Below the pieces are notes generated by a model. It did no database searches. It was not told the DNA's origin and worked only from the letters and a program-made list of their open reading frames with translations. 64,000 nt of DNA, taken from the NCBI GenBank assembly GCA_000004985.1, contig GG738872.1; one strand, 5' to 3'. The position numbers and the translations under genes are program-made. This stretch comes from Naegleria gruberi (taxonomy: Eukaryota). Positions 3,800 to 43,991 of this stretch are shown in pieces. Within the stretch, counting starts at the first letter, position 1; every line of letters starts with the position of its first letter.

Positions 3800-5748
3800 T
3801 TACAAATATCTTTTAAATCTGCTCTTCATCGCACAACATCTTAGAGTGGTTTGGGATGGTAGTCCATAAATTATACTCTTAAATTCTTGAATGTTTCCTT
3901 TGAAAAGCAGTTTCAAATGAGAGAGAATATATTTGGCTCCAGTTTTCGTAAACTTACTGGAACAAACAGTGAGACTATTCAAATACTTCATAGTGGGATT
4001 CAAAACTATCCATCCAAGTGTGAAATCTGTCAATTTGTTATTCCTTCCAATATTTAGACGAGTTAATTGTATGAAATTACATGAGCAAATGTGTGAAATT
4101 CCAATATCTGTTATGCTGTAATTACAAACTCCCAAATATTTGAGGTTGAGAGTCTTATTTTCCAAAGATGCAAGACTCTTATCGCTAATATTGTTACCAT
4201 TCAAATTTAAATGCTCCAGTTTAGCAAAGAAAGGGCATTGTACCAGAAATATCAATCCATTATCAATATTATTTTTAGCTAAATTGAGAGAAGTGAGATT
4301 ATTCAAATTTTCACAATTCTCAAATGCAACCATATCCCTATCATATAATCTGCAACTAGAGAGACACAACTCTCTCAAAGAATACATACTCGGATTTCTT
4401 GTAATACAGCGAATATCAAAATGAGTTAAATTTAAATACAAAGTGTTCAAATTTTCCATATATTCACTCTGGAGCATTTCTATTGCATTTTCACCAGAAC
4501 TGAAATGAATTTTCCTCAAGCTTTTCATTTTCTTGTTTGGAATTAATTTTTGGTTGAATGTGGATTTCAGATTTGTGAGATTAGTCAAGTATGGACTTTC
4601 GAATAGAGGATTTAAATCTTTCACTTGTCCTAAATCTAGATCTGTCAAACAAGAAAGGCCTTCACAGTTGGCTATAGATTCACTAATATCTTCTGAATTG
4701 ACGTTAAGTGAGAGAGTCCTCAATTTTTTCAATTTAAACAATTTACAATCAAATAAAACCTTTGAATCTATTGCAATATCAAAAATAAAACCTATGTTTA
4801 AAAGGGTTAGATTCATTAAACAAGAGCTATGGAAAATATGTTTCATCCCAGGATAACCAATTCCTGATCCACTTATGTTCAAACTCTCTAAATTGGAAAG
4901 ATGTGGACAATTTGCTATCAATGCAGCATCGTTAAAATCTAAAGCACAACTTTTCAAATTTAGAATTTTCAGATTTCTAATTGTGGGATTAAGAATGGAT
5001 TCAAGACGTTCTGGTGAAGCCAAGCATCCTTGGAGGTTAAGTTCAGTTAAATTTTTGCAATTAATAGAATAATAGTAGATTTCTATTGGTGATTCATAAA
5101 TAAATCTATTTCTGAAATTGACTTTTCTTAAATTGGGTAACGCTCCAATCACAGCAAGTATGTAGTAATCAGTTTCATCATAGCAATTGGATTGAAAAGC
5201 TCTAATATCCAATTCTAATAGATGTTTTAAATTTTGAGAACATGATCGAATAGATTCTGAGTTTACATGGGTTCCTCGCAGATTTAAAACTTTCAAATTT
5301 CTAACTATTTCACTCTCCAATAGGACATCAATACTTCTCTCGTCAATGCATAATTATTCCTCAAATTTAAATGTTCCAAATTAGTCAAAGTCTTACATTG
5401 GGAAAGTATTATCAATTGCTCATCTCTTAATGCATTGAATGCCAGACTTAGTTGAGTAATATTTCTAGGAACATTCGAAGCATTGAAGAAACTTTCAAAA
5501 TACCTTGGATGTATCTTTTTAATGGAAAAATCAAGTTTCATCCGAAATAAACAACTGGCATAAAACCAAGTCTTGGAAATTAAACAATAACTTGACAATA
5601 TTTCCAAATGATCATTACAATATTCCATAATTTCTATCATCATATCTTGTACTAATGCATCACCAAAGTAATTGTTCCAAATAAAATTGTCTTTTATCGG
5701 AGTATCGTTAGAAGAAGGTTGAATCTTGTGTTGCCTTGGTGAAATCAT
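3800..5748 (-). CDS. F-box / leucine-rich-repeat protein (FBXL-like). Two ORFs (5305..5748 F-box plus first LRRs; 3800..5320 LRR array) are joined by a frame discontinuity near 5300..5320.
   Basis: The N-terminal ORF has an F-box-like helix-loop (IEIMEYCNDHLEILSSYCLISKTWF) followed by LRRs (LTNLEHLNLRNNYALT). The downstream ORF is about 500 aa of LxxLxLxxN/C LRR repeats. A real ATG is at 5748. The frames overlap by about 50 nt with no acceptable intron. It is either an indel in the draft sequence or a pseudogene. Confidence 0.55.
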
Positions 5749-14499: not shown

Positions 14500-17400
14500 T
14501 TAAATAGACAACAATTCCTTCTCATTAAGATTCTTTTGAACATGATTCTTATTTCTACTTCTCTCCTTCAACAAGTAAATTACAGCAATAACAACAGCAA
14601 CCAAAGCAAATACTGGAATGGCCAATAAAATCAATGCAACCAAATTCATATCAGGTTTTGGAGCAATGATAATATTTGATTTGGATGATTCTTTAGGGAT
14701 TGGAGTTACTATTGTTGAAGTTTCTGTTTGAGAAACAAGTTTAACAATGAATGAGCCTGTTGTTCTTGTTTGGATTGTGATTGACTTATCAGATTCTGAT
14801 AGAATTGTGCATTGAGTTGATTGAATATAAGTTCCATTTTGTAATTCGAAACATTTAGCTACTAAACCATGTAAATTTCTGGCAGATGGCAATTTTCCAA
14901 TAGAAATGGATGCAATGGTGTAATTATTGTTGAAACTCATTTGTTGATCATTGTTGAAAATGGAGAATTCAACACTCTTACTGACAGCTGATTTCATTGT
15001 TGTGGATTGAGTCTTGTAATACAACTTGACACTTTCAACTTGATCAAATTCTGGCATGGAAGTGAAATCTTTGGTGAGGTTAAAGCTAGTTGTGGAATCA
15101 ACATTTTCATTCAATCCTTCCAAAGTTGTAATACTGACAAGTCTTGCGTAAACATTCATATTACTTGTGGTGGTCTTAACAGCTGGCATATCAGCAACCA
15201 AATTCTTAATTTGAACATTGACAAGATCACTGAAAATTTGTTCAATTCTTGACATGTCATCCAATGTGAATGTTCTTCTCATTGTTCCAGAAATGTGGCT
15301 TGAGAAGGCATTAGCAGAATTTTGAGAATTTGCAATATCTTGATCATTCATCTTGATTGAGCTAGAAGTTGATGCAGTGGATGTGGTTTCTGAGAATTTA
15401 GAGACAGAGAATGAAACTGTTGAATCTGCCAAATTATTGACACAACCACCAATGGATGAAAGGACAGAAACCTTTGAGGCAACTGAATCAGATGTTTCAG
15501 CAACAACTGAACCTTGTTCATCAGCTTGTTTAAAATACTTATCAACAAAGGCAGTACCAGCAGCTTTCAATGCTTCCTTTTCTTCTGGAGTTGCTGCAGA
15601 GACGGATCCTACAACTGACAGAGCAGATGAAATTGAAGAGACAGTTACTGAACCTTGTTGAGATACAGTAAGTGCAGCAAGGGCTTCTTGTGGTGATGGT
15701 ACGGTGGTAACAATTTGAGTTGTTGTTTCAGAAGATGCACCATTAGCATCATAAACGACAACTTTAATATCCAAAGTTCCTGCTGGAAGTGATGTAGCAA
15801 TTGACTTCTTTTCAGATTTGGAAGATAAAATGCTCCATGTGCTGTCAGTGGTCAACTTGTACAAGAATTCATATGAGAGTGGAACTTGTGGATCGTACCA
15901 ACCGTTACCACACTTAATTTGGAACTCATCTTTCAAAGCAACACCTGTGGTTGGATTGACTTCAAGAATACCAACAGTTGGTGGTGCATTGACTGTGAAA
16001 GTAATATCAGCACTTCCAGATCTATCACCATCAACAATATTCAATGAAACCTTGTTAACTGCTCCAGGAACCAAAAGTGTCTTTGGAATTTGAATATATT
16101 TGAGATTTGTTGTTACAGAGCTGAGATCCAAATCTGAGGAAGACCAAGCGTAGATTCTGGCAGATGAGAGGGAATCTTGATTGGATGCTTGTAATATAAA
16201 GTCAGAGGATGGGTCAACAACTGAGGTGTCGCAACCAGTTGGTGGTACAATAGAAGCTCTAATAATCTTTGATTTTGGTTGTTCAGTGACAGTAATCTTG
16301 ACAGTTGCAGAGGAAGTTCTTGTCAATCCCTTAGAGAATATGGTAGTGAATGAATAGACACCAGCTTCCATTGATCTACTGAATTTGAATTGATCAGCAT
16401 CATCAATAATGGGATCAAAGCAAGGAACAGCTGTAAGCAAATTGACACATGACAAGGAAATTGATCCTGAGGTTTCTGATGGATTACTTGGATCTTGCTT
16501 TTCAACATTGAATGTCACAGGAGTTTCAAAGGATTGAGACATATCTCTAACACTGAATGAAACAATTAATGGCAATGCCTTGGCAGTTACCTTAAACGGA
16601 ACATTGACAGTGGCAGCTCCGCTTTGAGAAACTGTCAAAACAAAGTAATAATCACCTTCAACTGAAATCTTTGTAAAATCATTGCTGAAAACCAACAATT
16701 CCTTATTCTTTTTAACAGTCACGGTTGTGTCCACAGATTTGGCTCTGTCTAAAGAATATTCATAGGACAATGGGCCAGACCCTCCATAACAAGATGGGAA
16801 GGAAACTGTTGGTGAAATAATTGAAGTCTTTCCAATAATCATTGTACTTTCCAAACCTTCCTTAATAGAAACTGTTGGAGATGTCAAATCAGAAATTTGG
16901 AATGAAACAGAAGCTGTTGAATGTTGTTGAGAGAAAGAGCTAGTGACAGTGACTTGAACAGTATAAGAACCAATTCCCAAAGTTTGTCCACTAACCTTAA
17001 TACCAGATCCTGATTGACCAGCAAGTAAAACTTCAAGAGCATCGGCATCGTCAGTTGTTGGAGCGAGAATGGTTGACCAAGTGAAAATTAAACTTCTTCT
17101 ATCCAAAGAAACTGATCCAGAAGCATCCAAGTAAATAGAACCACATGCCTTGGAAACACTGGCCTTGTCAGCTGTCAAAGAAGCAGTTGGAGAAAGAGGA
17201 AGATAATCCTTATTCTTAATACTAACTTGAGTAGTTTCTTGACTTCCAAAGTAATTCTTGAATTGTAAAGTTCCACCAATTGAAATACTTGCAGATGGAC
17301 CTAAAGTAATTTCCATAGAACTCTTTTCAGAATTCAAAAGACATTTGGCACCAACTCCAAGAATTTCATGATTGACAATAAGATCAGAACACATGAATTT

Positions 17401-20400
17401 CTTCTTTAAGGAAGAATAAACAACTCCGTAAATGGAATCACCCAAAGTTGAAAATCCGAAAGAAGTCGAATCTACACTAAAGTCACACTTCTCACCAAAC
17501 CAACCACTTTCACAGCTTTCACATTGAGCACCAGAAGTATGAGCTTGACAAGCACAACTTCCATCCATATTACAACTTCCTCTATTATTACAATTCTTTG
17601 AAGGGGAACATTCGAATTGACAATCTGTACCAACAAATCCAGATTTACACTTGTTACAGAATTCTCCTGCCCAATTACCAGTACAACCACATTTAAATGA
17701 GTTATCACATTTACCATGTCCACTACAAGTCAACTCGTCTGAACAGATTTTTTCAGAACAATCTGAACCAGTAAAGGAAGGAGTGCATTCTGAACAGAAT
17801 TTAGAAGCATCAAATGTGGAACTGGAACAGACACAGGCATTGTGTGAGATACATTTACCTCTACCACCACAGACAAGTGCTGAGGTTCTGTCAATATCAT
17901 TACATTTAAAGTTTTGACATGATGTACCATCAAAACCAGTATTACATTTACAGACAGGAGAGTTGTTTTCGAGTACACATTTACCTTTTCCACTGCAGAC
18001 AGATCCGTCAGTTGCCTTAACACCATTACAAATTGGAATGTCACAGTTTGGACCTGTCATTCCTGTTTTACAAGAGCCACAAGAAGAGCCAGCAAAGTTT
18101 CCAGAGCAAGTACATGTATGAGAATCAGAACAAGAACCACGGAATGAACAACCACCTTCAGATTCCAACTTGCCGTTACAAGTTGACAATTGGCATTCTG
18201 GACCAGTAAATCCATTATTACATTTGCAAGTATTGACACCAACACATTGACCTCTTCCTGAACAAACTAGAGAATGAGAACTATCCTTATCATAACAAAT
18301 TGGTAATTCACATTTTGATCCTGTATAACCCTTTGAACAATCACAATTATCTTGTGATGAACATTTACCCTTTCCTGAACAAACTGATGAGGCAGTATAA
18401 GAAACACCATGACATGTGGTGTCTGATGGAAGGAAGGAGCCAAAGAAACAATTTGTAGTTGTGAAGCTATCACAAAGACCAGTAAATGAATCTGGAATAC
18501 TGGTCAACTCAGTCTTGACAACTTGTTCACAAACGCTCTTACAAACTTGAGTAGAGGTGGCGATTGAGTCACGTTTGGAGCATGATTGGAATTTCATGTA
18601 ACAAACAAATTTGGTCAATGTAGCAATACATTTTTCATCACAAGTTTTTCCTTCCTGTGAATACAAGTTAATGTAATTGTCAAATTGTTCCTTTGCCAAA
18701 GCATCAATTCTAGAAGCAGCTCTAGCAATCAATAATCTAGCATGAGATGCATTTAGAGCTCCACTGTTATAAACAGAATTCAAAACAGTGTAATCAATAC
18801 TAGATTTACAGAATGACAATGCAGTTGATGGAAGAGTGATACAATCAACAGAAGGTGTGTAAATGTCACAATTTTCACCAGAGTATTCACTTGGACAAAC
18901 TTTCTTACAAACACTATTTGAGGAAATGAAATCAGCAGCACATGATGAACATGGGACTTCGCCAAGTTTGGAAATGTATCCCTTATTACATTTACAAACA
19001 GCTTCGGTTGAAACGGCAATGTTAACAAATTGACAAACACCATTACCACATGGTGAAGAACAAGTTGGTACGGCTTCAATACATCTACCTTGTTTGTTTT
19101 CAAAGCCAACTGCACAGCTACATAATTTACCATTTTGAGTAAAACCACTTTCAGAATTACAGACACATTGACCAGTTGTTGCATTAGTCTTGAAACCCTT
19201 CAATCCATCACAAGTACATCCACTTGATCCATCATAAGCATAACCACTTGAAACATCACAGACACACTTGGAACCAGATTGAATAGTCTTGGCAGGACAT
19301 GAACTACATGGTTTGTTTTGATCAATTGTGACAAATCCATTCTTACATTTACAAACAGAGACAGTTGAACTAGCTGTTTCAAATTCACAATTTCCATTCA
19401 AACCACATTCAACATTACATTTTGGTGTGGTATTTCTAACACATTTACCTTGTTCATTCATTGTAAAATCGAGTTCAGAATTACAAACACAAACTCCATC
19501 TGAGAGAATCAATCCAAGAGTGGAATCACAATCAGAACATGGATTTGTCGAATCAGAAGAAACCCATTGGGCTTCACAAATACACTGAGTGAAAGTTGTC
19601 TTGTCGTCACGATATGCACAAACTCCGTGAGATCCACAATTGAATTCACAAACTGCTGGTTTTCTAATACATTGATTACCAGAAGATTGATAATTAGCAG
19701 CAACATTACAGGTACATTCACCATTAGAGAGAACATGACCTGAAGAAGTATTACAAATACATAATGAGTTGACTAAATCAAATCCAGTCTTACAAACTGA
19801 ACATCTGTCACCTTCAAAGTTGTCCTTACAGGTACATGATGCAATACCAGTTGAGTTTTCACAAATTCCATGAACACCACATTGGAGAGTACATGGATTT
19901 GGTGATTTTTCTTGACAAAGATCTCCGAAATAGCCTTCTAAACATTGACATTTGGCAATTCCAGTAACATTGACACAAGATCCACTATTCTTACAATTTA
20001 GAGTACATAGATTTGGTTTTTGAACAATATTTTGACATAATTCACCATTGAAACCAGATGGACAAACACACTTATCATTTTCACAAACACCACCATTCAA
20101 ACAATCAAGTTTACAACCTTGATTAACTGGAACACTACACAAAGGACCAGTATATCCTGAATTACAAATACACTTCTCTTCACCGGTCTTTGTATTGTTA
20201 TAGCAAGTACCATTCACACAACCCAATGAGCAAATAATCTCATTAACACATTGATTTCTGTACAAATCACAGAACTTTGCAGAGCCAGTTGTACAATGAG
20301 CATCACTTTCACAATCTAGTTTACAAATAGCATTTCTACAAGTAGTATAAGGAGTATGTGAAGAACATTCATCATTGGTTGTACAAGAGATGTCAATACA

Positions 20401-23400
20401 TCTTTCCTTATCTAATTGACAAACCTTATTAGCTGCTTGACATGGACGAGTTGAATTACATTCACTTTGACAAGTATTTACAAAGTCACTTGTGTAATCA
20501 GAGACACAGATACCCTTACTACATTGATAATCACCACTACATTCAGTTTGGACACAAACTTTGGACCAACATTGTTTGAATCCCTTCAAGTAACAATCAG
20601 AGTTGACTAAACATGGTTGATTGGTACATCTACCACCTCCATTGCTAACATCACAATATGGCTTATTAGAAGGACACTCAGAATCATACATGCATTCACG
20701 AGTACAGAGTCCCGATTTACATGTTGGTAAAACTGCATAACTGCAACCAGCATTTGATGTACATTTGATTGGGAATTGCACACAAGTCTTTTTAGTTCCA
20801 CTGTAAATGTTAAAATCACAAACATCAGTCAAAACACCATTTTTAACAACACCAATACAATCACGATCAGTATCACATTCAGGAACACATTTAGAATTCT
20901 TACAAGCAGTGTATCCATTTTCAGTACATTCACTTCTTAATTTACAAGATTTTGGTTCACAAGCATTGGATGTAACATTACACACTGGTTTACCAGCAAC
21001 TGAGCTACAATCAGAATCTTTCAAACATTGTGGAACACATCTTTGATAAGTAGCTTGGCCGCTCACTAAATTACATTTAGTTTTACCAAATTTAGAAGCA
21101 CATTGAGAATCACCTAAACATTCAAAGGTACAAACTCCTTGAGAACCACAGAATGAATAACCATTTTCAGAACAATCACCATCAATAGAACATGGTTTAG
21201 GAACACATTTTCCAATATCAACATCACATTTCTTTTTAGAAACAACTCCAACACAATCAGCATCTTTCACACACTCAGGAACACACAATCCCAAAGTAGC
21301 ATCTTGCTTAGTTGAACAGATAGGTCTATTAGTATATTTGGCAGCACAATAAGAATTATATGAACACTCAACGTCACAATATTTTCTGCCTCCCATATTA
21401 GATCCACAAAAAGGGTATCCTTTAATTGTACAATTGGCACTATCAGTACAAAAACGGACAGTACATGTGGCAATTGATGCATCACATGAAGAGGTAATTC
21501 CCTCACAATCGGCATCTTTCTTACAACCTTCAACACATCTATTAAGGGTCATGTCATCCTTCTTGGAACAAGTGTTCAATAATGGATTTGCACTCGATAA
21601 TTGACAGTCATTGTTGGAGCTACATTCATCTTTACAATACTTGTAATATGGATCACACTTGCTATATCCCTTATATGGACAATCAGTGTCATTGGAACAA
21701 ATCTTCTTCTCGCAAACTCCAGTAGGACCACAAACTTTTCTAAAATCTTTAGTACAATCACTGTCAGAGGTACATTCTGGTCTACAATAACAATCTCCAT
21801 TCGTACAGAGACATTCAGTATTTGTGGCATAACGACCGCACGGAGAAATTGCGGGATAACAAGGGACTTTAGAACATTTACCTCCGGAACCATTAGTTAT
21901 ACAAGATGGTCTTCCATAATAACCATTACAATCTGCATCATTGCTACATTCAGCATTACATTTTCTATATTTGGAAGTTTCATTCTTATTGGAACCACAA
22001 ACTGGGAAGTATTGATTCTTACAATCAGAGTTGGAAACACATTCATAACCACAAGTTCCATTTGAAGAACAAATTTGGAAACCCTTAGAAACACAATCAC
22101 TAGTTGTGGTACAATTGACTGCTTGACACAAACCACTTGTCAAATCACAAACTGGTTTGAGTTCATCCAAGCAATCAGAACCACTCTTACATCTCAAAAT
22201 ACAATTCATTCCATCCCATGCATAATCAGGAGCACAAACTGAACAAGTCAATCTGTCACTAGCACAAACTTCACAATTGTTTTTACCACTTTCACATGAT
22301 TCAACACATTTGTGATATTCCTTAGTATTTGAAGAGGACATTCCACAACGACTGTAACCAAAGAGCTTACAATCATCATGAACCATACAATCAACATCAC
22401 AAGTTCCATTTGAATTACAATTTGGATAACCATATGGAGCACAATCAGAAGCAGTATAACAGCTGACACCAACACATCTGAAAACACTAGTGTCACATCT
22501 TGGTTTACCACGAGATAAAATACATCCATCATTATCTAAACATTCCTTATTGTAACAACGTTGATAAGTTTGAGGATCTTTAGAGTTAGTTCCACAACTA
22601 GTTTTACCAAATTTGGTACAATCGCTGTCTACTGAACATTCAATAGAACATCTCTTATACTTGGTTGGATCACTCTTATCATTATTACAGTAAGGGAGAT
22701 TGGCTGGACAATCAGCGTTAGTCAAACATTCGAATGCACAATTTCCATCAAGTCCACATTTAAAGAAACCTTGAGCTTGACAAGATTCATTCGAAGTACA
22801 ACTAGTTCCAATACAATATCCATTAACCAAATCACAATTTGGCATGGTTTCAGTACAATTCAAATTACTGGTACATTTTTTCTTTTCGCATCTAGCTCCA
22901 AAATAGGAATCTGTGCAATTACAAACTTCTCCATTTAAGGTATACAAACATTCGCCACCATTGACACAGGTCAAGGTTGAACATTTCTTCAAATTTTCAC
23001 AGTTAGTTCCTTCATATAACTTGGTACAGTTACAAGCATCTTGTGAAATACATGATCCTCTTCCAGAACAAACATTTCCATTATTGGAAGGTGTTCCATG
23101 ACATTTTGGAATACATTTTTCATAACTGATACAAGAACCTCCATTACAAACAGCTGGATCAGTAGAATTTAATCCACCACAAGTTGGAATTTGGCATTCT
23201 TCTCCAACATATCCAGTTGTACAATTACACAAATTAGGAGAAACACATTTACCATTCAAGGAACAAGCTGAGTTGCCAGTCTTTCCAAAACAGATTGGAA
23301 TAGAACAGTTACTACCAATGTAACCTTCATTACACGTACAAACGTTTCTCTTGTTACAAGCACCATTACCTGAACAAACATTTGAACTAGTACTGTTAAT

Positions 23401-26400
23401 ACCAAAACAAGTAATAAAAGTATTTACACATTTACGGTATTGAGAAGTAACATTACGAACAGAACCACAAGTAGTTTCATAATGCTCGAGAGTTGGACAA
23501 TCTTGATCGACCAAGCATTCATAAGAACAGAAACCATTCAAACAAACTGAAAGTCCATTCGAATAACATTGAGTTTCATTCGAACAAGGAACAGCAGTAC
23601 AACTTTCTTGAACACAAAGTGGTTTTGTAACGTTATAACAATGAGAATTAGTGAGACACTCCTTTCCACATTGTTTGTAAGTGAATCCATTTGAAAATTC
23701 ATGGCAATAGGTCTTATCTTGATATAACAAGGCACAATCATCGTTAGTTTCACATTCGAAACCACAAGTACCATCATCAGAACAATTAGAATAACCAGTA
23801 ATATTCAGAGAGACACAATCAGAACTAGAAGAGCAAACATTTGGAACACAGGTGTTGTTTTGACAAGAAGTTTGATACATTTCATAAATTAATGGATTCA
23901 AACAATCACTATCTAATGCACATTGCTTAATTTCACATCGGTCTCCAGTAAATAAAGAACCACATTTACAATATTCAGTACCGTTTTTGATTCTACAAAT
24001 ACCTCCATTGTCACATGTCTTTGTGCATGGAAGAACTGTTTGACATTGCGTTCCAGTGAAGGATTCACCACATTGACACTTGTCTAAACCGATACATGCA
24101 CCATTTCCGTTACAAGCAGTATCAATTGATTTACCAAAACAGGTAAAAACTTCACAATCAGTTCCAGAGGATCCTGTAAAGCAGCTACATTTTGGATCTT
24201 CAAATTTAGAACTACTTGTCAAACCAGTTCTACAGTAACCATTTCCACTACAAACGCTACTGTCATTTGCTAGCTTTCCAGTACAATTAACTTGACATGC
24301 ACTTAAGGAATTTCCAGCTGTTTTGAAAGAATATCCAGAACAACTAATTGGATAGAGTTCATAAATATTACTTCCCATAGAGTAGAAAACAGATGATGTC
24401 TCTCCAAGAGCAAGAGCTGAAGGTGTGCCTGCTAATGATGAAGCAATTGAGTAAGGAATTGTTGACATTCCAATAGTATATAACATAATGTTCGTACCAG
24501 CGACAATGTAAAGAATACCATTTTTGGTTACTTTCATATATTCAACAGATGATGAAGTGGTGAAACTGTAATCAACTGAATTGTAACCCTTATAGGCAGA
24601 GACAGTTGTTGTGTAGGACACAAATGGTTTTCCATAAATGGCCATTCTACCACCAGGTTTTCCACTAAGAACTCCACCAACAGGACCGTCATTGAAAAGT
24701 GAATCAACATTACCATATTGCACGTCACCTTCTCCTGAAAGACGTCCGGCAACATAAACGACAGTATCATCTTCATTCAATGTTATAGAGCTGGTTCTCC
24801 AAAAACTGAATTTTCCACCTACTCTGCTCTTGGTAACCAAATCATATCTGAAAACGAAACAGGAAGTTGTAGAAAAGTCCTTCCTGACAGAATAATACAT
24901 GTATCTTCCATTCTTACTGATGGCCATATTGTAAAATGTGTAACTGGTTGTTAGAATTAAGGTTTTGGTTCCACTAGCAGTCATTGAAACAATTTCGGTA
25001 TCGAACATTATATAATAAACACCATTGACATATGCCATGTCAACAATGGTGGCACCAGCACTCAATACTTGTTTGGAGGCATAATTGTAGTAACCAGTAT
25101 GAACTGGCCAGTATGTTGGTAAAACTTGACATGTGTTAGGACCTATACATTTCAATCCATCACAAACTGAACCAATATTTGAAGAATTACTCAAGACTCC
25201 ACTGCAGGAGGTAACATCACAATTAGATCCAATCCAACCTTCCTTACATTCACAATTGTTCATTCCGACACATTTACCATTTCCAGAACAAGTATTCGAA
25301 ACTGTTTTAGGAATATTAGAACAACTATAAATATCACAAGCATCACCAAAATATCCACTCTTGCATGAACAATAAGGTTTCATAACATTAGTAATACATG
25401 TACCATTTCCACTACAGACATTGACATCTGATGCTAAAATACCATTACATTGTGGTTGGGAACAATTACTGCCTGTCCATCCTTGAGAACAGGAACAATT
25501 ATTATCAATACAAACACCATGACCAGAACAAACCAAAGTATTTGTACTAAGTAATCCATCACAGGTGTATGTACAAACTTCAGATGAATTAATGTATAAA
25601 CATTTGGCAGTTTCTGAACAGTTAGTATTGACACAAGGTTGTGAAAATTCACAATTACTTCCAGAACGACCAGTGTTACATTTACAATTATTCATTGAGG
25701 TACAAACACCTTCTCCAGAACAAACACCTTGACTAGAAGCTCCAACACCATTACAAGTGTGCTCACAAACATTTGGTCCAATACACTTGACATTAGTACC
25801 GTATTTGGCACATCCCAATGTTGATGTAGCAGAAATTCCAGAACATGTGAAATTGAGACATAATGAACCTTCATAACCATCGAAACAAGAACACTTGTCA
25901 GTTCTGACACAAGTACCATTTCCACTGCAAACACTTGGATTTGATGAGTTTTTACCATAGCAATACTTGAATTCACATTCAGAACCTGTATAACCAGAGA
26001 AACATGAGCAAGCAGAATATAAAGGAGTTGAACTAGTTGACTGTCCAAGTTCTGCATTGAAAACTGTTACAGTTGAGCCAACATTAATTGCACATGATCC
26101 TCCTCCATTACAAACATTAGAATCGGATGATATTAAACCATTACATGTAACATCACATGTTGTTTGATCCACTACAGCATTTTGTGAACATCCAGTGACT
26201 GTAAGCTTTCTTACTACATTACTAGAATCAGTAAAGTAAATATTTCCATATTCATCAAAAGTCATTTCATAAGAGTAAAGTTGAGCAGAAAGAGCTGGAC
26301 CGTTATCACCAGTATTTCCATTGGTACCTATACCTGCAATTGTCAATTCAGTGTTAGGAATATATTTTCTAATTGTATTACCGTAATAGGTAAATACTTC

Positions 26401-29353
26401 TCCTTTTGAATTGAACTTGAAGTAACTATTTTTAAATATGTAGGAAGTAACTGTGGTTGCTGTGGATGGTGTCTTGGTTACATCCCAAGATTTAAGTGTA
26501 TTCGCATTTAGATGATATATTTTACCATTATAGTAATCAATTGTGCCAGAAGTTATAGTTTTATCACATGTCTGAGTTAATGAAGGAGGGACAGTACAAA
26601 AACCTAAATTTGAAGACAGGAAGTAGTATGTGTCAGTTTCAGGGTTGTAGGCCAATGAATACATGGAATAGTAGCTTGTCATTGTTGTCAATTTTGTAGC
26701 TGTTCTACTGGCAAATGAATATCTATAAATATTGTTTGCAAAATCAGTTCCTTTACACATGAAAGCAAGATCTCCATTCTTATCAACAATTAAATTAAGC
26801 ACAGGTTCACAAGAAAGGGTAACAAGTGTGTATATTAAACCATTACTAATGGTTCTAATTCTCTTGTTGTTGCCTTCTGAAACATAAACTGAACCATTCT
26901 TGTAAACGATGCCTTGAACACCATAACCAACAGCAGAAATGGCTGGTTGACCATCTCTTGTATAAGATAAAGTACCTGTTCCCGCAATGTTTGTAACTTC
27001 TTTGGTCAATTGATTGTAGGATTTTACATAATTTCCATTGATGAAAAGGTATTCACCACTCTTATAGGATGGGGTAATAAAAGAACTTCCAGTTGGAATT
27101 GAGAAAATTGTTCTAATGATATTATCCTGGAGGGAAATTGATCGAACATTACCATTAGAATCTGAGAACATGAGACTGCTACCATCTGTTGAAGCATATA
27201 ACGTTGTAATATTTGAACAAGATGCATTAAGGGCTGGACCTTCATCTCCTAGAACTGTAGCTGTTGGATCACAGGCTAATCTTCTTACATAATTACTACC
27301 CCCAGTAGATTCCATTTTGAAAATAACTCCAAAGTTGACAAAGTAAACAGTGTTCATTATTGAGGTAATTAAGGAAGTTGCGCAAATATTAGCATTCAAA
27401 GCTAATTTATCCTGTACAGAACTAATACCACTTCCACAAGTACCAGATCCAACATAAGTTGATACACCATTGGTAGAATCATCAATTTTGAGGATCTTGT
27501 TGCCTTCAGTTACAACAAAAATCAGAGACGAATTTCTATTGGAAGCGATCATTTTGATTGTTGTACCAGAAAGCATGGTTGCATATACTTCACCTGTGGA
27601 AAAACAAGTAGCACAAGCATATTTAACGATGGACTTTGCAGGGTACGCCTTGTAAATGGTGTCTATGGTGGCCACATATGCAAGATTCTTTGAGACTGTT
27701 AAAAATTTACAACTGGAACAGGAGATTGTTTTCAATACGCCTGCTACGATTGGTTTTACATAGTTATCAGAATCGAGAATATAGGTTGCTTCAGGAGTTG
27801 CATAAGCAGCAATAACACCAGTCATTTTCACTGTCAATGGATCGCCAGTGGTTGGTTCACTGGTATATGAGAATGCAACCTTGTCAATTTTGTAATTAAA
27901 CAAGGAACCACCACACTTTCTAAAATCTATACATGTTTCACATTTTGTTCCATTGAAACCTTCATTACAAACACAAGTATTTTCACCCATACATGTTCCT
28001 TTACCAGAACAAACTTTAGCACTGGTTTCAACAATACCAAAACAAGTATTATGTTTTTGTGAACAATTGGATCCATAATGTGGAGAGGTACATTCACAAT
28101 TATCTGTTGCAATACACTTTCCATTACCAGAACAAACATTAGAGTTATTAGAAAGAATGCCATCACATCTATGAACACAAATTTCTACACCTTTAGAATA
28201 AGAACATTCATTACATGCGGAACATGGTCGAGAGAATTCACACTCATCACCAAATCTACCATTGGAACATGAACAATTATTTTCAGCAACACAAACACCT
28301 TCTCCAGAACAAACATTTGGACTAGATGCTCCTACAGCATAACATGTATGTTCACAAACATCTGGACCAATGCACTTAACTTCTGAACCGAATTCACTAC
28401 AAACATCTGGCAATGCTCCAGAAACATTGAAGCATATATAATCTGTACATTGTGGACCAGACCAACCTTCATTACAGGAACAATTATTTGAGGAAATACA
28501 TGTTCCATTTCCTCCACATACAGTTGGATCACTATCTGCCTTATTAAAACAGTGAATAGTTGTACAATCAGAACCATAAAATCCTGAATCACAATTACAT
28601 GTGGTACTAGTATTTGAAGTAATAGCACAAATACCATTACCACCACAAACAGTAGGATCTGATTCAGACAATCCATTACAGGTAATTTCACATGTTGTAC
28701 TATTGACATATGAGTTATCCATACATCCAATAACAGAGAGCTTTCTAACAACATGATTAAATCCTTCACACATGAAAATGTCACCAAATTCATTAAATGC
28801 CAATGATCTAACACCATCAACAAGAGCTTTTGTGGAAGGTCCACCATCACCTGAATAGCCATATGCATCTCCACCAACAAGTGTAAATTTTCCACCATTA
28901 GCATACTTTACAACATCACTAGAAGAATACAGAAACATTTCTCCTCTAGAGTTGAATTGAATACCAGAATAGGAGGATGAAACAATCATAATCTCTTGAG
29001 TTGAGAATGNNNNNNNNNNNNNNNNNNNNNNNNNNNNNNNNNNNNNNNNNNNNNNNNNNNNNNNNNNNNNNNNNNNNNNNNNNNNNNNNNNNNNNNNNNN
29101 NNNNNNNNNNNNNAAGAGTTCCATTTGATCCAATTGACAGAATAGATGGACCATCAGTTACATAGAGAGTCCCATTCTTGTAAACCACACCACCACCCCA
29201 TGCTGTTTTAGTTGTTGCAATGGTTGAAATATTGAACTTGAACATGGTACCACCACATTCGTAATTGTTTTCACACGCTTCTTGTGCTCTTACCTTGCAA
29301 TAGCAAAGTAAGGTTACCAAAGCAAAAAGGAGAAATTGTAGAATCCTTTTCAT
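14500..29353 (-). CDS. Giant (about 4,950 aa) single-exon type-I membrane protein. Order of regions: signal peptide, NHL beta-propeller repeats, tenascin-type EGF arrays (several clusters), a long run of about 40-aa Cys-rich modules, a REJ-like module, a Ser/Thr-rich stalk, one TM helix, and a short cytoplasmic tail.
   Basis: One uninterrupted frame runs from the ATG at 29353 to the stop at 14500; it is broken only by the 104-N gap at 29010..29113, and the frame jump across the gap is an artefact of its arbitrary length. The signal peptide is MKRILQFLLFALVTLLCYCKVRA. NHL-type repeats are visible (YGYSGDGGPSTKAL...FGDIFMCEGFNHVVRKL; GDNGPALSAQL...GNIYFTDSSNVVRKL). Dozens of 6-Cys EGF units are present (e.g. 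CSGNGKCIATDNCECTSPHYGSNCSQ). Cys-rich modules of the form CxxDxDCxxxxxxxCxxxxxxC repeat many times. The C-terminus is IIAPKPDMNLVALILLAIPVFALVAVVIAVIYLLKERSRNKNHV... (TM plus tail). Confidence 0.8.
29010..29113. other. Assembly gap of 104 N inside the 5' part of the giant gene.
   Basis: A run of N. The reading frame differs before and after the gap, so the real gap size is not 104. Confidence 0.95.
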
Positions 29354-37983: not shown

Positions 37984-39414
37984 TTAGTTATTGTACTCAT
38001 CGTAGAATACTGATTCTCTATTGACAAGATTTAAGGTAGCCTTTGGCTCTGTCGAAATCTCTTCCAGGCAGTAATCTTCCAATACATCTTCACTGAAATA
38101 GGAAAGAATTAATTCTTCACACAATTCATCACTTTCAAATTTTTGATCCCCAGAAATGAACAAATGTTGAACTGAGGAGTTTCTAAGGAAAGATGTGTTC
38201 TTGTTTTCCTGTAAATAGTCAATCATGTGTAATGGAGTGGTACTGTCAAGTACTAAATGGGTCAAGTGATTAACAGTTCTGAGATGTTGAAAACATTCAC
38301 CACGTATGCTCGACAAATCACCAGTAATATCCAAACATTCCAAATATTCGAGTTCTTTGAATATTCTTGAAATAATATTGTCTGAGAGGTGGGACTTTAC
38401 TTCCGTATTTGCTTCCGTATTTGCTGTTTGTTGTATGTCGATAATAAGAGTTTTGAGATTTTTCATTTTGAGAATATGCTCAATAATTTCTATATCCAAA
38501 TTGGTAGATTCCCTTATTTCTAGGTATTCAATTTGTTTAGGATAGAATGATAGGAACCAATTTCCAAAAATCAAATTGCATCTCTCCATGACAACTTTTT
38601 TCAATTTCTTTGATTTAAAAAGTGTTGATTTGATTGTTTTAGGATTTGAAGTATTGGTTGTAGAAAAATCACAATATGTTAATCCAGACAAGTAAACTTC
38701 TTCCAATTGTTGAAAATGAAAATCTGTTGGGACAACATATCCTTTTGCTGGACCGCACAGCATATTTTCTGAACTATTGACAGTTAATCTCTTTAGAGTT
38801 TTGTATGTTTTCTTTTTGATTGACTCTAATTCAAGTTCTAATATTCCTGTTTGTTTGAGTGTTAATTCTTCAATGACAGGGCACATTGATAATACTTTAG
38901 AAATAACATCTGCAGAGGACGAATCAACATGATTTGCTCTCAAAATTTTCAAGTTTGGCAATTTTCTAGTTTGCAATAAATACATGTAATCAGTTACCAT
39001 AGAATCATTACCATCAAAATCAATTATCAAATTATACCAATAATCACCAGTATTTTGGATAATCTTTTTGATTCTTTCCACATCTTTCACATCATACTTT
39101 AAATTAATATCAATCACTCTTTCAACACGTCTCTTCTTTCTTCCCAAATCAACAAATGGCCTCTTGAAATGACAATATGCAACATTTCTCCAAAGCAAAT
39201 AATCATTCGGATCTTGATCTTGATTCCCCTGATGATCATCAAATGGCAAAATAATTGAATGAAAATATTTACAAACTCTTGCCAAAGGAATCAACTCGAA
39301 TAATGTAACAAACGACAATATTGATGTAATATTCTCGATCGGGAGATTCAACAAATGTACATCATGAGATGATCTTTCTGATGATGAATTTTCCCCTTCA
39401 TGTGATGCCGCCAT
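37984..39414 (-). CDS. F-box / LRR protein, single exon, 476 aa.
   Basis: ATG at 39414. The F-box-like motif is LLNLPIENITSILSFVTLFELIPLARVCKYFHSII. It is followed by LRR-like repeats (LKILRANHVDSS..., LEYLECLDITGDLSSIRGECFQHLRTVNHLTHLVLD). Confidence 0.65.
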   Translation of the reverse strand: MAASHEGENSSSERSSHDVHLLNLPIENITSILSFVTLFELIPLARVCKYFHSIILPFDDHQGNQDQDPNDYLLWRNVAYCHFKRPFVDLGRKKRRVERVIDINLKYDVKDVERIKKIIQNTGDYWYNLIIDFDGNDSMVTDYMYLLQTRKLPNLKILRANHVDSSSADVISKVLSMCPVIEELTLKQTGILELELESIKKKTYKTLKRLTVNSSENMLCGPAKGYVVPTDFHFQQLEEVYLSGLTYCDFSTTNTSNPKTIKSTLFKSKKLKKVVMERCNLIFGNWFLSFYPKQIEYLEIRESTNLDIEIIEHILKMKNLKTLIIDIQQTANTEANTEVKSHLSDNIISRIFKELEYLECLDITGDLSSIRGECFQHLRTVNHLTHLVLDSTTPLHMIDYLQENKNTSFLRNSSVQHLFISGDQKFESDELCEELILSYFSEDVLEDYCLEEISTEPKATLNLVNRESVFYDEYNN

Positions 39415-39598: not shown

Positions 39599-41351
39599 AT
39601 GCAAAAGCTCATTTCGACTTTTTTTCGATCATCTCCCGAATCAAGTGCCAGCTTTGACACTTCAGAAAAACCAAAACCAAGACTTCATAACCAAGGTGAT
39701 TCCAAGGCGATTGTATTCCTAGGAACAGGTGGTTCAGGAAAGTGTACGTAAAAAGTTTACAACAATTATTTATTCAACAATTTTTAATTTGTTTTGTAAA
39801 TGTTAAATAGCTGCAATTTTTGTACAAATGTTTATAGAGAAGGATGATTTGGAAAAGAGAAGAACCATTCTACATGAAACAATTTTGGAATATTTTGACA
39901 TGGTTTCAATTAATACTTCTTTTGGGAATGCTCAAGCTTGCACGAAAATGGATGAATTTTTCGAGGAATATTCTAGATCGGGACCAAAGACGCTATCGGC
40001 AAGCAAGTTTTGGACTCAGGATTTTGCAGATAATTTGTTCGAGTTGTTTTACGATTCTGGATTTCAAGATTTGATTCACCAAAACCGTTCGAAACTCTAT
40101 TTACACGAGAATATTGCCTATTTCATGAGGAAGAAGAATTTTGAGAGGATTAAACACTTGTCCAAACTCAACATTGAAGATTTATTGCGAATAATGATTA
40201 AAACCTCTGGCATCTCATCATTTTCTCCAATTAAAGGAATAACCCTGTGTGATACTGGTGGACAAAGAACTGAAAGAAAAAAATGGAATAAGATTATAAG
40301 TAATCATGGCAGCAATATTGTAGAATGTCTGGTTGTTTCATTGGCAGAGTTTGATGAGGTTTGCTATGAGGACGATGTCACTAACAGGTATGAGGAAAGC
40401 TTGACTTGTTTTAGGGAGGAATTTGTGAATACAAAAGACTTGACCATTCTCTTTACAAAATATGAAGTGTTGAAAAGGAAGGTTTCTGATGGTGTTCGAT
40501 TTTCGGATTATGTTTCAGAGTTTAGTGGAAATGATTCGAATGTAGAGGAAGTTAGAGATTTTATTATTGGAAAGTATGTGGAATTGGATACGGAGAAGAA
40601 GATTAGAAAGTTTATTGTGGTTAATTCTGCATTTGATCATTTGGAATTGCAACAGGTTTTTAATGAAATTACCGAAACTAATTCATTCGATTCATATTTT
40701 GATGAATATTTGAAGAAACTTGATTTGGAAAAGCAAACTGGTGGTGATGTTGGAGAAGGAATACATGAAAATATTGAGAAGTGGACAGCCAGACCATTAT
40801 TGGAAGATGAAATTCTACAAATTTCCAACTTTTTGGAACTTGATGACTTGCTTAATATGAACCAAGTTTGTAAAATGTGGAATCATGTGACTTATAGAGC
40901 ATCTCTGATATTGAGAAGACCAAATCTCGATTTGTTTATCAATTCAGGTTATGAATTTGTTAAGAGCTTGACTCTTCAATCGAGATTTGTACAGAAAAGA
41001 CACATTGAGGCTCTTACTCAACCAAAATTTGCACAATTGGAATATTTAGATTTGCGAAATAATTATCTATTGAGACAAGAAGATTTTGATAAGTTATTTG
41101 GAAAAACTGATTTTAAACATCTAAAAACGCTCTTGTTGGATTATGTTGCATTACAGGATTTGAAATTTCTTCAAAATTCTGCGTATTTGAGACTGCATGT
41201 TCTTTCTTTGAATGGAGTGAAAGGAATTAGCACAGAACAGGTTATTCAGCTCATCAAGTCTCCAAGCTGTCAAGAACTGAAGGAGGTCAACACTAAAAAT
41301 TGCCCAAACACTAATACAGAGATTCTCAAAAAAGAGTTGAAAGTTCCGTGA
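39599..41351 (+). CDS. Fusion protein: heterotrimeric G-alpha-like GTPase domain (Ras-like plus helical domain) followed by an F-box and leucine-rich repeats. Exons: 39599..39743 and 39811..41351.
   Basis: Exon 1 ends in the P-loop (KAIVFLGTGGSGK|S). The intron at 39744..39810 (67 nt, GTACGT...AAATAG) is phase 1. Exon 2 has the G-alpha helical-domain signature (YLSKLNIEDLLRIMIKTSGI), which aligns with the switch-I region of Gi-class G-alpha subunits. Switch II is DTGGQRTERKKW. Then come a canonical F-box (PLLEDEILQISNFLELDDLLNMNQVCKMWNHV) and LRRs (LEYLDLRNNYLL...LRLHVLSLNGVKGI). The NKxD and TCAT guanine-specificity motifs are not recognisable. Stop is TGA at 41349-41351. Confidence 0.7.
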
Positions 41352-41446: not shown

Positions 41447-41519
41447 TGCTGACGGACGGGATCGAACCGGCGACCAATGGCTTATTAGACCAACGCTCTA
41501 CCGACTGAGCTACGCCAGC
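41447..41519 (-). tRNA. tRNA-Ile, anticodon AAT (read as IAU), 73 nt, no intron.
   Basis: The minus-strand sequence is GCTGGCGTAGCTCAGTCGGTAGAGCGTTGGTCTAATAAGCCATTGGTCGCCGGTTCGATCCCGTCCGTCAGCA. It is a cloverleaf with a 7-bp acceptor stem, D-arm GCTC/GAGC, anticodon loop CTAATAA and T-loop TTCGATC. It closely resembles eukaryotic tRNA-Ile(AAT). There is one mismatch in the anticodon stem (27-43) and one in the T stem (50-64). Confidence 0.7.
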
Positions 41520-42086
41520 TTCACATTGAATATTATGCTTAAATGCTCCGGCTTAAATACCACAATTTTGACAGCTCACACAAGTAAAATAGATTTTAAG
41601 ATTTAGTAAAACTTAAGTACAAGCTATAGCTTTGAAAATACATTTCAAAGGTCTGTATCTTTAGCGCTAAAGATCTTTCCCTTGTCCCTTCTTGCTCAGA
41701 CTTGTAGGAATCTAATTAAGGTGGGCTGTTAGTTGGTTGATTGGATTGTGAGTTTGATTTTGTTGTGATTGTTGAGACATTTTTGTTTGGGCAATTGATG
41801 TTGATAACATGTTCCACTACAACAGTTACACAACCAAAAGTAATTAAATATTCACCCAATCAAATAATTCCCTATTTTACAAATCTCTTCTGTTTCAATT
41901 TCCAATTGTTGCTTGGACACAACAATACAAATTTAATCACAAATTGTAAACTTGACACACGAACTGTATTCTTTTGCGTAAAAGGAACTTCCATCTCATT
42001 GAATAGTCATCGTCCTTTCATGTAAATTAGGCAGTGATCTACTATTCAAATTGCTAAAAAAAATAAAAAACAACATAACCATCAAG

Positions 42087-43991
42087 ATGGCGAAACTGTT
42101 GCAACAGCACAATCATTTCATTAGCTCATACGTGCTGATGGTCGCGATTTTATTTATTGTCGTTGTCTTGATGATGAGTGGCCAAGACATGAATCAGGTC
42201 GAGGCAAAAATACAACTTCAAACAACCTGTTGTTGTCCTGCACAATTTAATTCTACCATTGTATTGAGTGGTGGTGGTGAAAAAGATGTGCATGTTGTAA
42301 ATCCATCACACGATTTGATATTTAGCTATTCTACTTATGAAGCTCTTTCATTGCCAACTTATGAATGGAAATCCACTGATATTGATTTGAGTGGTTTGGC
42401 TTGTAATAGAAGTTTCCTTATAATTCCCAAGACTAAACTTATGCTATTTGAAAAACAATTAACTGTTCAATTGATCATTAGAGAAGGTTGCTCAAAGATC
42501 TCTAATCCTTCAATTTCCTTCACTTTGAATACACCTCCAAGTGTTGGAACCTTGTCAATTACTCCAAGCAGTGGTGTTGCTTTGGAAACTGTTTTCACCT
42601 TGACATGTAACGGTTCTTCAGTTTCTAATAATCCTCTTACCTACAGATTCTTTTACTTGGACGAATCCAATTCAGTATGGAAGCCACTAAACGAAAGAAA
42701 TCAAGATTCAACTCTCAGTTCCACTCTCCCTCTTGGATCCAATTCAAGCAGCACACAAGTTTTGAATATCAAGGTTATTGTTTATGATTCTGTACTTGTT
42801 TCCTCTGAAAAGCAAATGACTGTCATTGTCTACAAACCTTCCTCAATCAGCAATACTACACTGTCTGACATGTTACAAAAGGCCAGCTCCAAATCAGTTT
42901 CGTCCTCCTATATTTCATCCACTTTGGATGCAATTACATTTTTTATTGCATCATCCACCAATGTCCCTAGCAATATGAAACAAATTATGAGTGCAATCAA
43001 TGCAGTTGTCGTTTCCTATGTTGATACTCTTCAAAATATTGGTCAATTCACATCTGATAATGGTATTTCCACTGTTTCTGCCATCTCTTCAATCAGCTCA
43101 TGTGTGGAATATGTTCAAGATGCAGAAAGTACATCTTCTATCATTAAGAAATTGAGAAATTTGACAGAGGAAGCAGCAACTAGCAGTTCTTTCACCTTGG
43201 ATGATGATTATTTGTATCTCATACAAAAGACAGCAAACAAATTCCTTCTCCATGTAAAATCATCCAATGATTTAAAAGAAATTGAAAATATTTACCCATT
43301 AGTTGGTAAATCTTTCATGAAAAAGTCTGTTCCAGATATGCCAGCAATTACCTTTTCTAATACCATTCAAATATGTTATTGGAGAAAGGTATTGGTTTCA
43401 TCCTTGACAAGCATTGTTGGAGAATCCATTGATAATAACGGAAATAAGATTTCAATACAATCTGGATTAGCAACACACCCGTCAGTTTCACAATTGAACT
43501 ACATTACATTAGCTTTGAAAACTGAATCCCCTACCGACAGGTTAATCTTTGACTTTTCAATACTTGAATTTGATAATGTCTCATCAGATAAGAGCCTCAT
43601 ATCAGTATTCTTTGATACCACTTTTCCTTTCTACTATTGTTCCTATTGGGATAATGCATGGAATCAGACAGTGGCTGGAGGTGCTTGTAATATTAATTAC
43701 TCAGGAAAAAGTTCAATTGGCACCATCTCTGCATCAATTGAAAAGACTGGTCGATTTTCCATTATCCGTGATCCAGGAGAGGGAGGAGAGAGCTTTATCA
43801 GGAATAATTATGATTTGTTTGCCCTATTTGCATTGTTGATTATTCCAATTGTGTGCATAATTATTGTATTATTGGTGGCCATTTACTTGTTGAGAAAGAG
43901 AAAGATCAAAACCAACTTGGAAAATAATGATGTTGATATTGTGAATGTGCGTGAACCTAAACAAACACTTATCAGTAATCAACACTTTTAA
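42087..43991 (+). CDS. Single-pass type-I membrane protein with a REJ-like (polycystin / receptor-for-egg-jelly type) module, a Ser/Thr-rich stalk, a C-terminal TM helix and a short basic tail. It is a paralogue of the C-terminal part of the giant protein.
   Basis: ATG at 42087; [30 protein letters not shown] is a signal or anchor. The segment [27 protein letters not shown]...[59 protein letters not shown]...NIKVIVYD aligns residue-by-residue with the giant protein segment YAWSSSDLDLSSV...ADITFTVNAPPTVGILEVNPTTGVALKDEFQIKCGNGWYDPQVPLSYEFLYKLTTDSTW...DIKVVVYD. The C-terminus is [32 protein letters not shown]. Confidence 0.65.

Follow-up and report, generated by a model that had tools for sequence, protein, structure and literature searches.

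Fusion of a G-alpha domain that lacks the catalytic arginine with an F-box/leucine-rich-repeat tail in a Naegleria gruberi gene

Proteins that combine a GTPase with a module for ubiquitin ligases have been described repeatedly. In the RhoBTB proteins the BTB domain, which binds Cul3, is autoinhibited by the GTPase domain of the same polypeptide, and RhoBTB3 uses ATP (PMC4931677). TbFRP of Euglenozoa carries, in this order, FYVE, F-box and Ras-like GTPase domains, and its authors found no ortholog in Naegleria gruberi (PMC3593210). Further GTPase/ubiquitin ligase fusions are the ARF-F-box and ARF-BTB proteins and TRIM23 (PMC8358228), and Rab40, which has a SOCS box, is a GTPase and ubiquitin ligase adaptor (PMC4812663). 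By contrast with such fusions, the usual picture of a G-alpha subunit is, almost without exception, that of a switch on its own with separate effectors. Here we analyse a stretch of 64,000 nucleotides of N. gruberi DNA (assembly GCA_000004985.1, contig GG738872.1; referred to as the window), in which the gene NAEGRDRAFT_49587 joins a G-alpha domain without the catalytic arginine to an F-box/leucine-rich-repeat (LRR) tail in one open reading frame (ORF). It is important to note that recurrent fusions of GTPases and E3 ligase adaptors are already known, and that the G-alpha/F-box/LRR combination is what is new. In the literature searched, a 2011 survey of architectures, a likely place, lying outside it, we found no description of the G-alpha/F-box architecture or of the gene and protein identifiers. 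This agrees with an earlier note on this DNA, made from the letters alone, which knew of no described G-alpha-F-box-LRR protein.

NAEGRDRAFT_49587 is located on a scaffold of 413 kb and is annotated just as "predicted protein". Its public model (EFC43592.1 / XP_002676336.1 / D2VHI5; P0001) is truncated, i.e. its 467 amino acids start at an internal Met (MDEFFEEY) and lack the first 94 residues including the P-loop; from residue 95 onward, the exon-2-encoded protein is 100% identical to it. The corrected model has 561 amino acids and two exons (39599-39743 and 39811-41351), with the frame kept across the splice. Its ATG at 39599 is preceded by a TAA in the same frame 9 nt upstream. At the junction, exon 1 ends with GGA AAG T, followed by 67 nt of intron (GTACGT...AAATAG) and then by CT GCA, so that the intron interrupts the P-loop GTGGSGKS within its Ser codon. 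An intron at the matching codon and in the matching phase also interrupts the paralogue NAEGRDRAFT_66027 (GGA AAA A/GTAAGT..AAAAAG/GT), and this splice is used in its public model. An allele on a metagenome contig (L003; ERZ929261), which is 98.7% identical, also keeps the 67-nt intron, with GTATGT as donor. The sole change in its split codon replaces Ser by Thr, and the resulting GKT in place of GKS remains a valid Walker A motif. The two-exon structure and the intron that the earlier note had proposed are borne out by the restored frame, by the site common to the paralogue and by the conserved intron length in the allele.

The fusion itself does not depend on any splice, because the G-alpha domain, the linker, the F-box and the LRRs all share the uninterrupted ORF 39828-41351. 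Between the G-alpha domain and the F-box there are 0 stop codons and 0 Met codons, which rules out two separate genes, one for the G-alpha and one for the F-box/LRR part. An assembly chimera, which the earlier note had named as a refuting possibility at 40.6-40.8 kb, is likewise ruled out, as the independent metagenome contig L003 is collinear with the window gene across the G-alpha/F-box junction. With a single ORF and an identical arrangement in L003, the fusion in NAEGRDRAFT_49587 is therefore neither a splice artefact nor a chimera, and the three parts lie in one reading frame as previously claimed. The allele differs by a 5-nt insertion just before the stop codon (aligned to window position 41341), by which the last residue is replaced and the protein gains 15 residues. 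The extreme C-terminus is thus unconstrained.

An exhaustive HMMER search of 1.84 billion representatives revealed a small set of relatives. Like the AlphaFold2 (AF2) model described below, it was run with the 512-aa translation of exon 2 (residues 50-561), which is without beta-1 and the P-loop, so that the nucleotide pocket lies outside the model. The search returned P0001 and four strong matches, well above the ordinary G-alphas, which scored at most 107 bits. The strong matches are the F-box/LRR-containing ORF of NAEGRDRAFT_66027 (P0005, 250 bits; L001 699-2195), NAEGRDRAFT_73957 (P0006, 246 bits), the public NAEGRDRAFT_66027 model (P0007, 171 bits), in which an out-of-frame splice after the G-alpha drops the F-box/LRR tail, and an environmental fragment (P0008, 168 bits). 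P0005, P0006 and P0008 align to the query over G-alpha, F-box and LRR at 35-38% identity, and motifs such as RPNLDLF, LQSxF and LEYLDLSNNY are common to the family. In the G-alpha part the members are mutually closest (32-39% identity versus 28-33% to other G-alphas), with one marginal exception. The three N. gruberi genes are found on separate scaffolds of 413, 250 and 537 kb. All three public models are faulty, that of P0006 being without the N-terminal half of the G-alpha, and the analysis thus corrects three gene models of this organism. Since the environmental fragment pairs with P0005 in both halves (55% identity in the G-alpha, 49% in the tail; contig with 33% GC), it is probably the ortholog of P0005 from another Naegleria-like organism. 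These alignments show that the complete G-alpha/F-box/LRR architecture is conserved throughout a small Naegleria family. Scans of JGI metagenomes with the tail profile and with the full profile gave no matches, and no contig was retrieved when the 507-aa ORF and P0006 were looked up as exact proteins.

The contig of the environmental fragment (L005 1-150) holds upstream in-frame sequence, LLTGGQRNERKWW, with LLTGGQ where DxxGQ is expected, i.e. with the Asp replaced, and stop codons occur further upstream. Either an intron lies here, or the G-alpha half is decaying in the source organism.

When comparing P0005 with P0008, the proportion of synonymous differences (pS) is 0.71-0.78 and hence saturated, and that of non-synonymous differences (pN) is 0.27-0.33. 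The ratio of non-synonymous to synonymous rates (dN/dS) is ~0.15 for F-box plus LRR, and the G-alpha is likewise constrained. In this pair, both halves are thus under strong purifying selection. Between the window gene and L003, dN/dS is 0.42 overall and 0.29 in the G-alpha, from 20 changes in total, which are too few to inform. One could suspect a non-functional relic or annotation artefact, i.e. a decaying fusion without biological role, since each of the three N. gruberi copies has a public model that is truncated or mis-spliced, the 5-nt indel changes the last residues, and the tail has a dN/dS of ~0.9 between the two strains (on very few changes). However, a frame of 561 codons stays open in AT-rich DNA (33.5% GC in the window), three dispersed paralogues and the environmental relative keep the full architecture, the selection on both halves between paralogue and environmental relative is strong, and the intron and the P-loop are conserved. 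We find a relic barely credible.

The N-terminal half is a G-alpha by sequence and by predicted structure. The Pfam G-alpha model PF00503 matches the spliced protein with 167.7 bits (E 5e-49; curated cut-off 48.8 bits), residues 34-338 corresponding to positions 18-332 of the 333 in the hidden Markov model (HMM). Among PDB sequences, N. fowleri Galpha7 (6ne6) matches best, with an E of 1.6e-32, and G13, Gq and Gi come next. Residues 50-561 were modelled with AF2 from a 61-sequence alignment; the model has a predicted local distance difference test score (pLDDT) of 77.7, with confident Ras-like and helical domains. In a Foldseek search with this model, 50/50 of the matches listed are G-alpha structures, with a template modelling (TM) score of ~0.7 (target-normalised). 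The G-alpha-type fold with helical insertion proposed in the earlier note is thus well founded.

The motif columns were compared with those of 54 ordinary G-alphas. The P-loop, reconstituted by the checked splice, reads GTGGSGKS as the earlier note had it and matches GxGxSGKS/T. In the arginine-finger column (R178 in G-alpha-i1), where 50/54 G-alphas have Arg, there is Met177 (switch I LLRIMIKTSGI), and the arginine finger is gone in all three family members with a readable switch I (Met, Met and Tyr). The Mg-binding Thr (KTSG; Thr in 51/54) and DxxGQ (DTGGQR; Gln in 50/54) are kept, also in the family wherever readable. The Met in switch I and the retained Gln in switch II had both been recognised before. 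The NKxD and TCAT motifs, formerly called unrecognisable, align as TKYE (G4) and NSA (G5), with Lys and Ala kept. In the other members, G4 reads NKMD, TKFE and SKHQ (in the 54 G-alphas, the Asn column has Asn 48 times and Thr 6 times, and the Asp column has Asp 53 times and Glu once) and G5 reads ISA, ISA and DCC (Ala in 50/54). Loss of the arginine finger cripples GTP hydrolysis in G-alphas, e.g. at R201 of Gs and R183 of Gq, and Gq R183C still responds to regulators of G protein signalling (RGS proteins); the PDB entries 4ekc and 4ekd are RGS2-Gq(R183C) complexes. YchF/OLA1, which have NxxE at the G4 position, prefer ATP.

On these grounds it is worth considering what the earlier note had proposed, namely a pseudo-G-alpha. 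A true pseudo-GTPase scaffold would bind no nucleotide and would act as a static substrate-binding domain of a receptor in a Skp1-Cul1-F-box (SCF) ubiquitin ligase. The lost arginine finger and the degenerate G4 in 3/4 members (TKYE, TKFE, SKHQ) would fit, as would LLTGGQ in place of DxxGQ on the contig of the environmental relative. Yet the P-loop GxGxSGK(S/T) is intact and the natural Ser-to-Thr change preserves it; the Mg-binding Thr, DxxGQ and the Ala of G5 are kept; one paralogue has a canonical NKMD; and Thr for the Asn of G4 also occurs in 6/54 ordinary G-alphas. The label thus goes beyond the sequence. We regard a nucleotide-free scaffold as unlikely, and a slow GTPase or a GTP-locked switch is the more economical reading of these motifs.

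The opposite proposal, a receptor-regulated signalling G-alpha, would cycle normally downstream of a seven-transmembrane (7TM) receptor and G-beta-gamma, with the F-box/LRR part as covalent effector. It draws on the almost canonical switch II, which comprises G-beta- and effector-contacting residues and keeps the Gln, on the canonical NKMD of one paralogue and on the rich G-protein toolkit of Naegleria. The ends of the domain argue otherwise. The N-terminus (MQKLISTFFRSSPESS...) has neither Gly2 nor a Cys for lipidation, and 35 Pro/Ser-rich residues instead of an alpha-N helix precede beta-1. Helix alpha-5, whose tail inserts into the receptor in G-alphas, continues into the linker and the F-box, leaving no free C-terminal tail. 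With an N-terminus that offers no lipidation site and an alpha-5 without a free end, the protein lacks the features typical of membrane anchoring, of G-beta-gamma docking and of receptor coupling. Moreover, every member with a readable switch I has lost the arginine finger. Conventional receptor signalling is therefore, in our judgement, quite improbable.

For the tail, the evidence from this protein alone is only suggestive, and that from the family is better. PF12937 (F-box-like) scores 20.2 bits (E 5e-4; cut-off 24.3) and PF00646 (F-box) 10.4 bits (cut-off 20.5), and the LP dipeptide of the F-box is absent in all four members, which have LL, LI, LK and LI instead. The F-box is thus not the "textbook" example that it had been taken for. 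The rest of the pattern, EIL..I..FL...DLL....VCK.W, agrees with SKP2. Among the family tails PF00646 is matched in 4/4 (best E 1.6e-4), PF12937 in 3/4 and LRR_4 in 3/4. A profile of the four tails retrieved SKP2 (E 1.5e-3), FBXL2, FBXL3 and KDM2A as best matches in the PDB, the alignment spanning the F-box and the LRRs. AF2 folds the tail alone (190 aa) with a pLDDT of 86.1 and a predicted TM score (pTM) of 0.82 into three short helices and then ~6 beta/alpha repeats; in both AF2 models a three-helix F-box fold is directly N-terminal to the LRR solenoid. Foldseek with the tail model gave FBXL2-SKP1, SKP2-SKP1, KDM2B, FBXL17, COI1-ASK1, TIR1 and FBXL3, and the longest structural alignments (177/190 residues, F-box included) are those with FBXL17 and FBXL5. 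As to the LRRs that the earlier note had listed, this protein alone has no significant match to an LRR model in Pfam; they hold up through LRR_4 in the family and through the predicted solenoid. The linker ahead of the F-box is ~40 residues long, poorly conserved in sequence and variable in length within the family, with a pLDDT below 50 at model residues 306-326.

The weak F-box scores raise the question of whether the stretch engages Skp1 at all. The tail could instead be a mere LRR interaction module, or the F-box could merely drive the turnover of its own protein, as has been proposed for TbFRP (PMC3593210). Several observations oppose this reading: all four members match F-box HMMs independently, the three predicted helices sit in the right place directly ahead of the LRRs, the long alignments with FBXL17 and FBXL5 include the F-box, and the hydrophobic core pattern and VCKxW are as in SKP2. 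Furthermore, COI1 is also without LP and yet binds ASK1. A tail without Skp1 engagement is thus rather doubtful to us.

NAEGRDRAFT_49587 is a genuine, selectively maintained gene, and with moderate confidence we favour its product as an SCF substrate receptor that carries a GTPase-impaired G-alpha switch. In such a protein the F-box would dock on Skp1-Cul1. We infer that the G-alpha module retains nucleotide binding because the P-loop, the Mg-binding Thr, DxxGQ and the Ala of G5 are intact. GTP hydrolysis would be very slow and the module hence mostly in the GTP form; switching off, if it occurs, would be brought about by RGS-type GTPase-activating proteins. TKYE at G4, with Glu for Asp, may loosen the guanine specificity. 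As both a lipidation site and an alpha-N helix are missing, and as the receptor-contacting C-terminus is buried in the fusion, the protein would be soluble and not a receptor-coupled subunit of a heterotrimer. The active G-alpha module could recruit G-alpha-binding partners such as RGS proteins and effectors for ubiquitination. Alternatively, it could gate access to the LRRs or the F-box, in a manner comparable to the gating of BTB/Cul3 by the GTPase domain of RhoBTB.

Several results weigh against this proposal. The F-box stays below the curated Pfam cut-offs and LP is missing in every member, so that Skp1 docking is only a prediction. In the full-length AF2 model (pTM 0.59) the linker has a pLDDT below 50 and no contact between the domains is predicted with confidence, which makes the gating pure conjecture. 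Since Glu or Gln replaces the Asp of G4 in 3/4 members, the module might bind nucleotide less well than a G-alpha does, contrary to the retention assumed above. Between the window gene and L003 the tail has a dN/dS of 0.92 (1.5 synonymous and 5.5 non-synonymous changes), a comparison too shallow to reveal constraint. Finally, no ortholog was seen in N. fowleri or N. lovaniensis by word-indexed searches, which could have missed one. These searches were erratic, returning 4, 4 and 3 matches and omitting members of their own query alignment, and the missing orthologs are therefore weak evidence.

Some G-alphas of N. fowleri are self-activating and under the control of 7TM-RGS proteins (PMC9283941). 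The G-alpha switch in the SCF receptor might be self-activating and GTP-locked without its arginine finger, and be turned off only via 7TM-RGS or other RGS proteins of Naegleria. We put this forward tentatively and somewhat doubt it. If true, extracellular cues would control the degradation of targets through one polypeptide, with no need for G-beta-gamma, exchange catalysed by a G-protein-coupled receptor or a second messenger.

Table 1. Positions in the window of the parts of NAEGRDRAFT_49587.
Feature	Position	Strand	Basis
Exon 1: start codon, unstructured Pro/Ser-rich N-terminus, beta-1, most of the P-loop (GTGGSGK and first base of Ser49)	39599..39743	+	upstream TAA; splice; Pfam
Intron, 67 nt, GTACGT...AAATAG, phase 1 in the Ser codon of GKS	39744..39810	+	paralogue and L003
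Exon 2: remaining G-alpha, linker, F-box, LRRs, TGA stop (41349-41351)	39811..41351	+	ORF; match to P0001
G-alpha domain, residues 34-338, intron-interrupted; helical domain ~39840-40157	39698..40679	+	PF00503, 6ne6, AF2/Foldseek
P-loop GTGGSGKS, residues 42-49, across the intron	39722..39812	+	splice, Pfam; Ser49 is Thr in L003
Switch I DLLRIMIKTSGI; Met177 (40194-40196) at the arginine-finger position; Mg-binding Thr kept	40179..40214	+	columns versus 54 G-alphas
Switch II DTGGQRTERKKW, catalytic Gln kept	40251..40286	+	column comparison with G-alphas
G4 TKYE instead of NKxD	40455..40466	+	column comparison; other members NKMD, TKFE, SKHQ
G5 NSA instead of (T)CA(T), Ala kept	40623..40631	+	column comparison
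Linker, end of alpha-5 to F-box; disorder predicted at ~40728-40790; no Met	40671..40793	+	AF2
F-box-like three-helix module (PLLEDEILQISNFLELDDLLNMNQVCKMWNHV...)	40794..40907	+	PF12937 sub-threshold; family HMM matches; AF2; SKP2 alignment
Short LRR solenoid, FBXL type, ~5-6 beta/alpha repeats	40908..41348	+	

The surroundings of the gene bear on its origin. A divergent F-box/LRR gene (37984-39414, minus strand; PF00646 25.4 bits) adjoins it, the start codons being 184 bp apart, and an LRR gene lies 35 kb away at 3800-5320. These two are what remains of the "several" F-box/LRR neighbours of the earlier note, from which local exon or domain shuffling had been suggested. Neither tblastn nor BLASTP detected specific similarity between neighbouring genes and the fusion tail, the best match (E 0.026) being confined to 40 residues of LRR sequence, and a local origin from the neighbouring F-box gene was therefore rejected. 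In contrast, the tail is 32-35% identical to those of the paralogues on other scaffolds. Since the dispersed paralogues have homologous tails, the fusion predates the duplications that gave rise to the paralogues and was not made locally.

Downstream, a tRNA-Ile gene (anticodon AAT) is located at 41447-41519 on the minus strand, 95 nt past the stop codon. It is followed by a gene for a REJ-domain protein (42051-43991, plus strand; PF02010, E 5.9e-24). Given its hydrophobic segment at the C-terminus, this protein looks membrane-bound and of the polycystin/REJ type. Elsewhere in the window, 14500-29154 on the minus strand is a single uninterrupted ORF of 4884 aa.

Other multidomain G-alphas were noticed as well. 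Public data hold predicted proteins with G-alpha-TPR, Kelch-G-alpha, LRR-G-alpha, Hint-G-alpha and G-alpha-C2H2 zinc finger arrangements, which came up in the search of representatives (P0046, P0059, P0090, P0099, P0022, P0083). On a contig of JGI metagenome 3300073937 (L004 3579-4538; P0004, P0155), a G-alpha of an AT-rich eukaryote, unrelated to the family, has an F-box-like insert between NKQD and G5. The insert matches PF12937 below the cut-off (22.6 bits, E 9e-5), and the adjacent gene has a DUF4116 domain. This may be a second, independent association of a G-alpha with an F-box.

If our reading of NAEGRDRAFT_49587 as an SCF substrate receptor is right, the protein would, for the first time, connect a switch of the G-alpha class physically and directly with a cullin-RING ligase (CRL). 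It would extend to G-alphas a theme of small GTPases (RhoBTB-Cul3, Rab40-Cul5, TRIM23, TbFRP, ARF-F-box), and the natural loss of the arginine finger would provide a ready-made test case in which a ligase reads out the conformation of a G-alpha. The reach of these conclusions is limited: the family has few members and is so far known from Naegleria alone, the N. gruberi genome often shows domain shuffling, and the function is predicted from sequence and models.

How does the protein compare with known systems? As in G-alphas, and most closely in N. fowleri Galpha7 (6ne6), its best match in sequence and structure, a Ras-like domain with a helical insertion comes with P-loop, Mg-binding Thr and DxxGQ. 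Unlike these, it has Met for the arginine finger and TKYE at G4, it lacks the lipidation site and the alpha-N helix, and its C-terminus goes on into a ~220-residue F-box/LRR module instead of a receptor-binding tail. It also departs from the FBXL class (SKP2, FBXL2, FBXL17, FBXL5, KDM2A/B, TIR1/COI1). There the solenoid is much longer than the ~5-6 repeats found here, the F-box of the Naegleria protein is without LP and below the Pfam cut-off, and its N-terminal partner, a G-alpha, is in no described FBXL protein. With TbFRP it shares the presence of a GTPase in a ubiquitin ligase adaptor and an origin within Discoba, whereas TbFRP has the reverse domain order and no LRRs. TbFRP, ARF-F-box/ARF-BTB, TRIM23 and Rab40 all contain small Ras-superfamily GTPases, and none of them a G-alpha with a helical domain. 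The closest functional analogy is with RhoBTB1-3, in which an atypical GTPase and a CRL adaptor module likewise form one polypeptide. The fusions are not homologous, the Naegleria protein having a G-alpha and not a Rho domain, an F-box for Skp1-Cul1 and not a BTB domain for Cul3, and belonging to another lineage. The single ORF, the four family members and the dN/dS values nevertheless place a GTPase fold and a candidate CRL adaptor in one polypeptide that is maintained by selection. Its kinship with RhoBTB, Rab40, TbFRP and ARF-F-box, as judged by comparison of their architectures, is one of analogy and not that of a homologous family.

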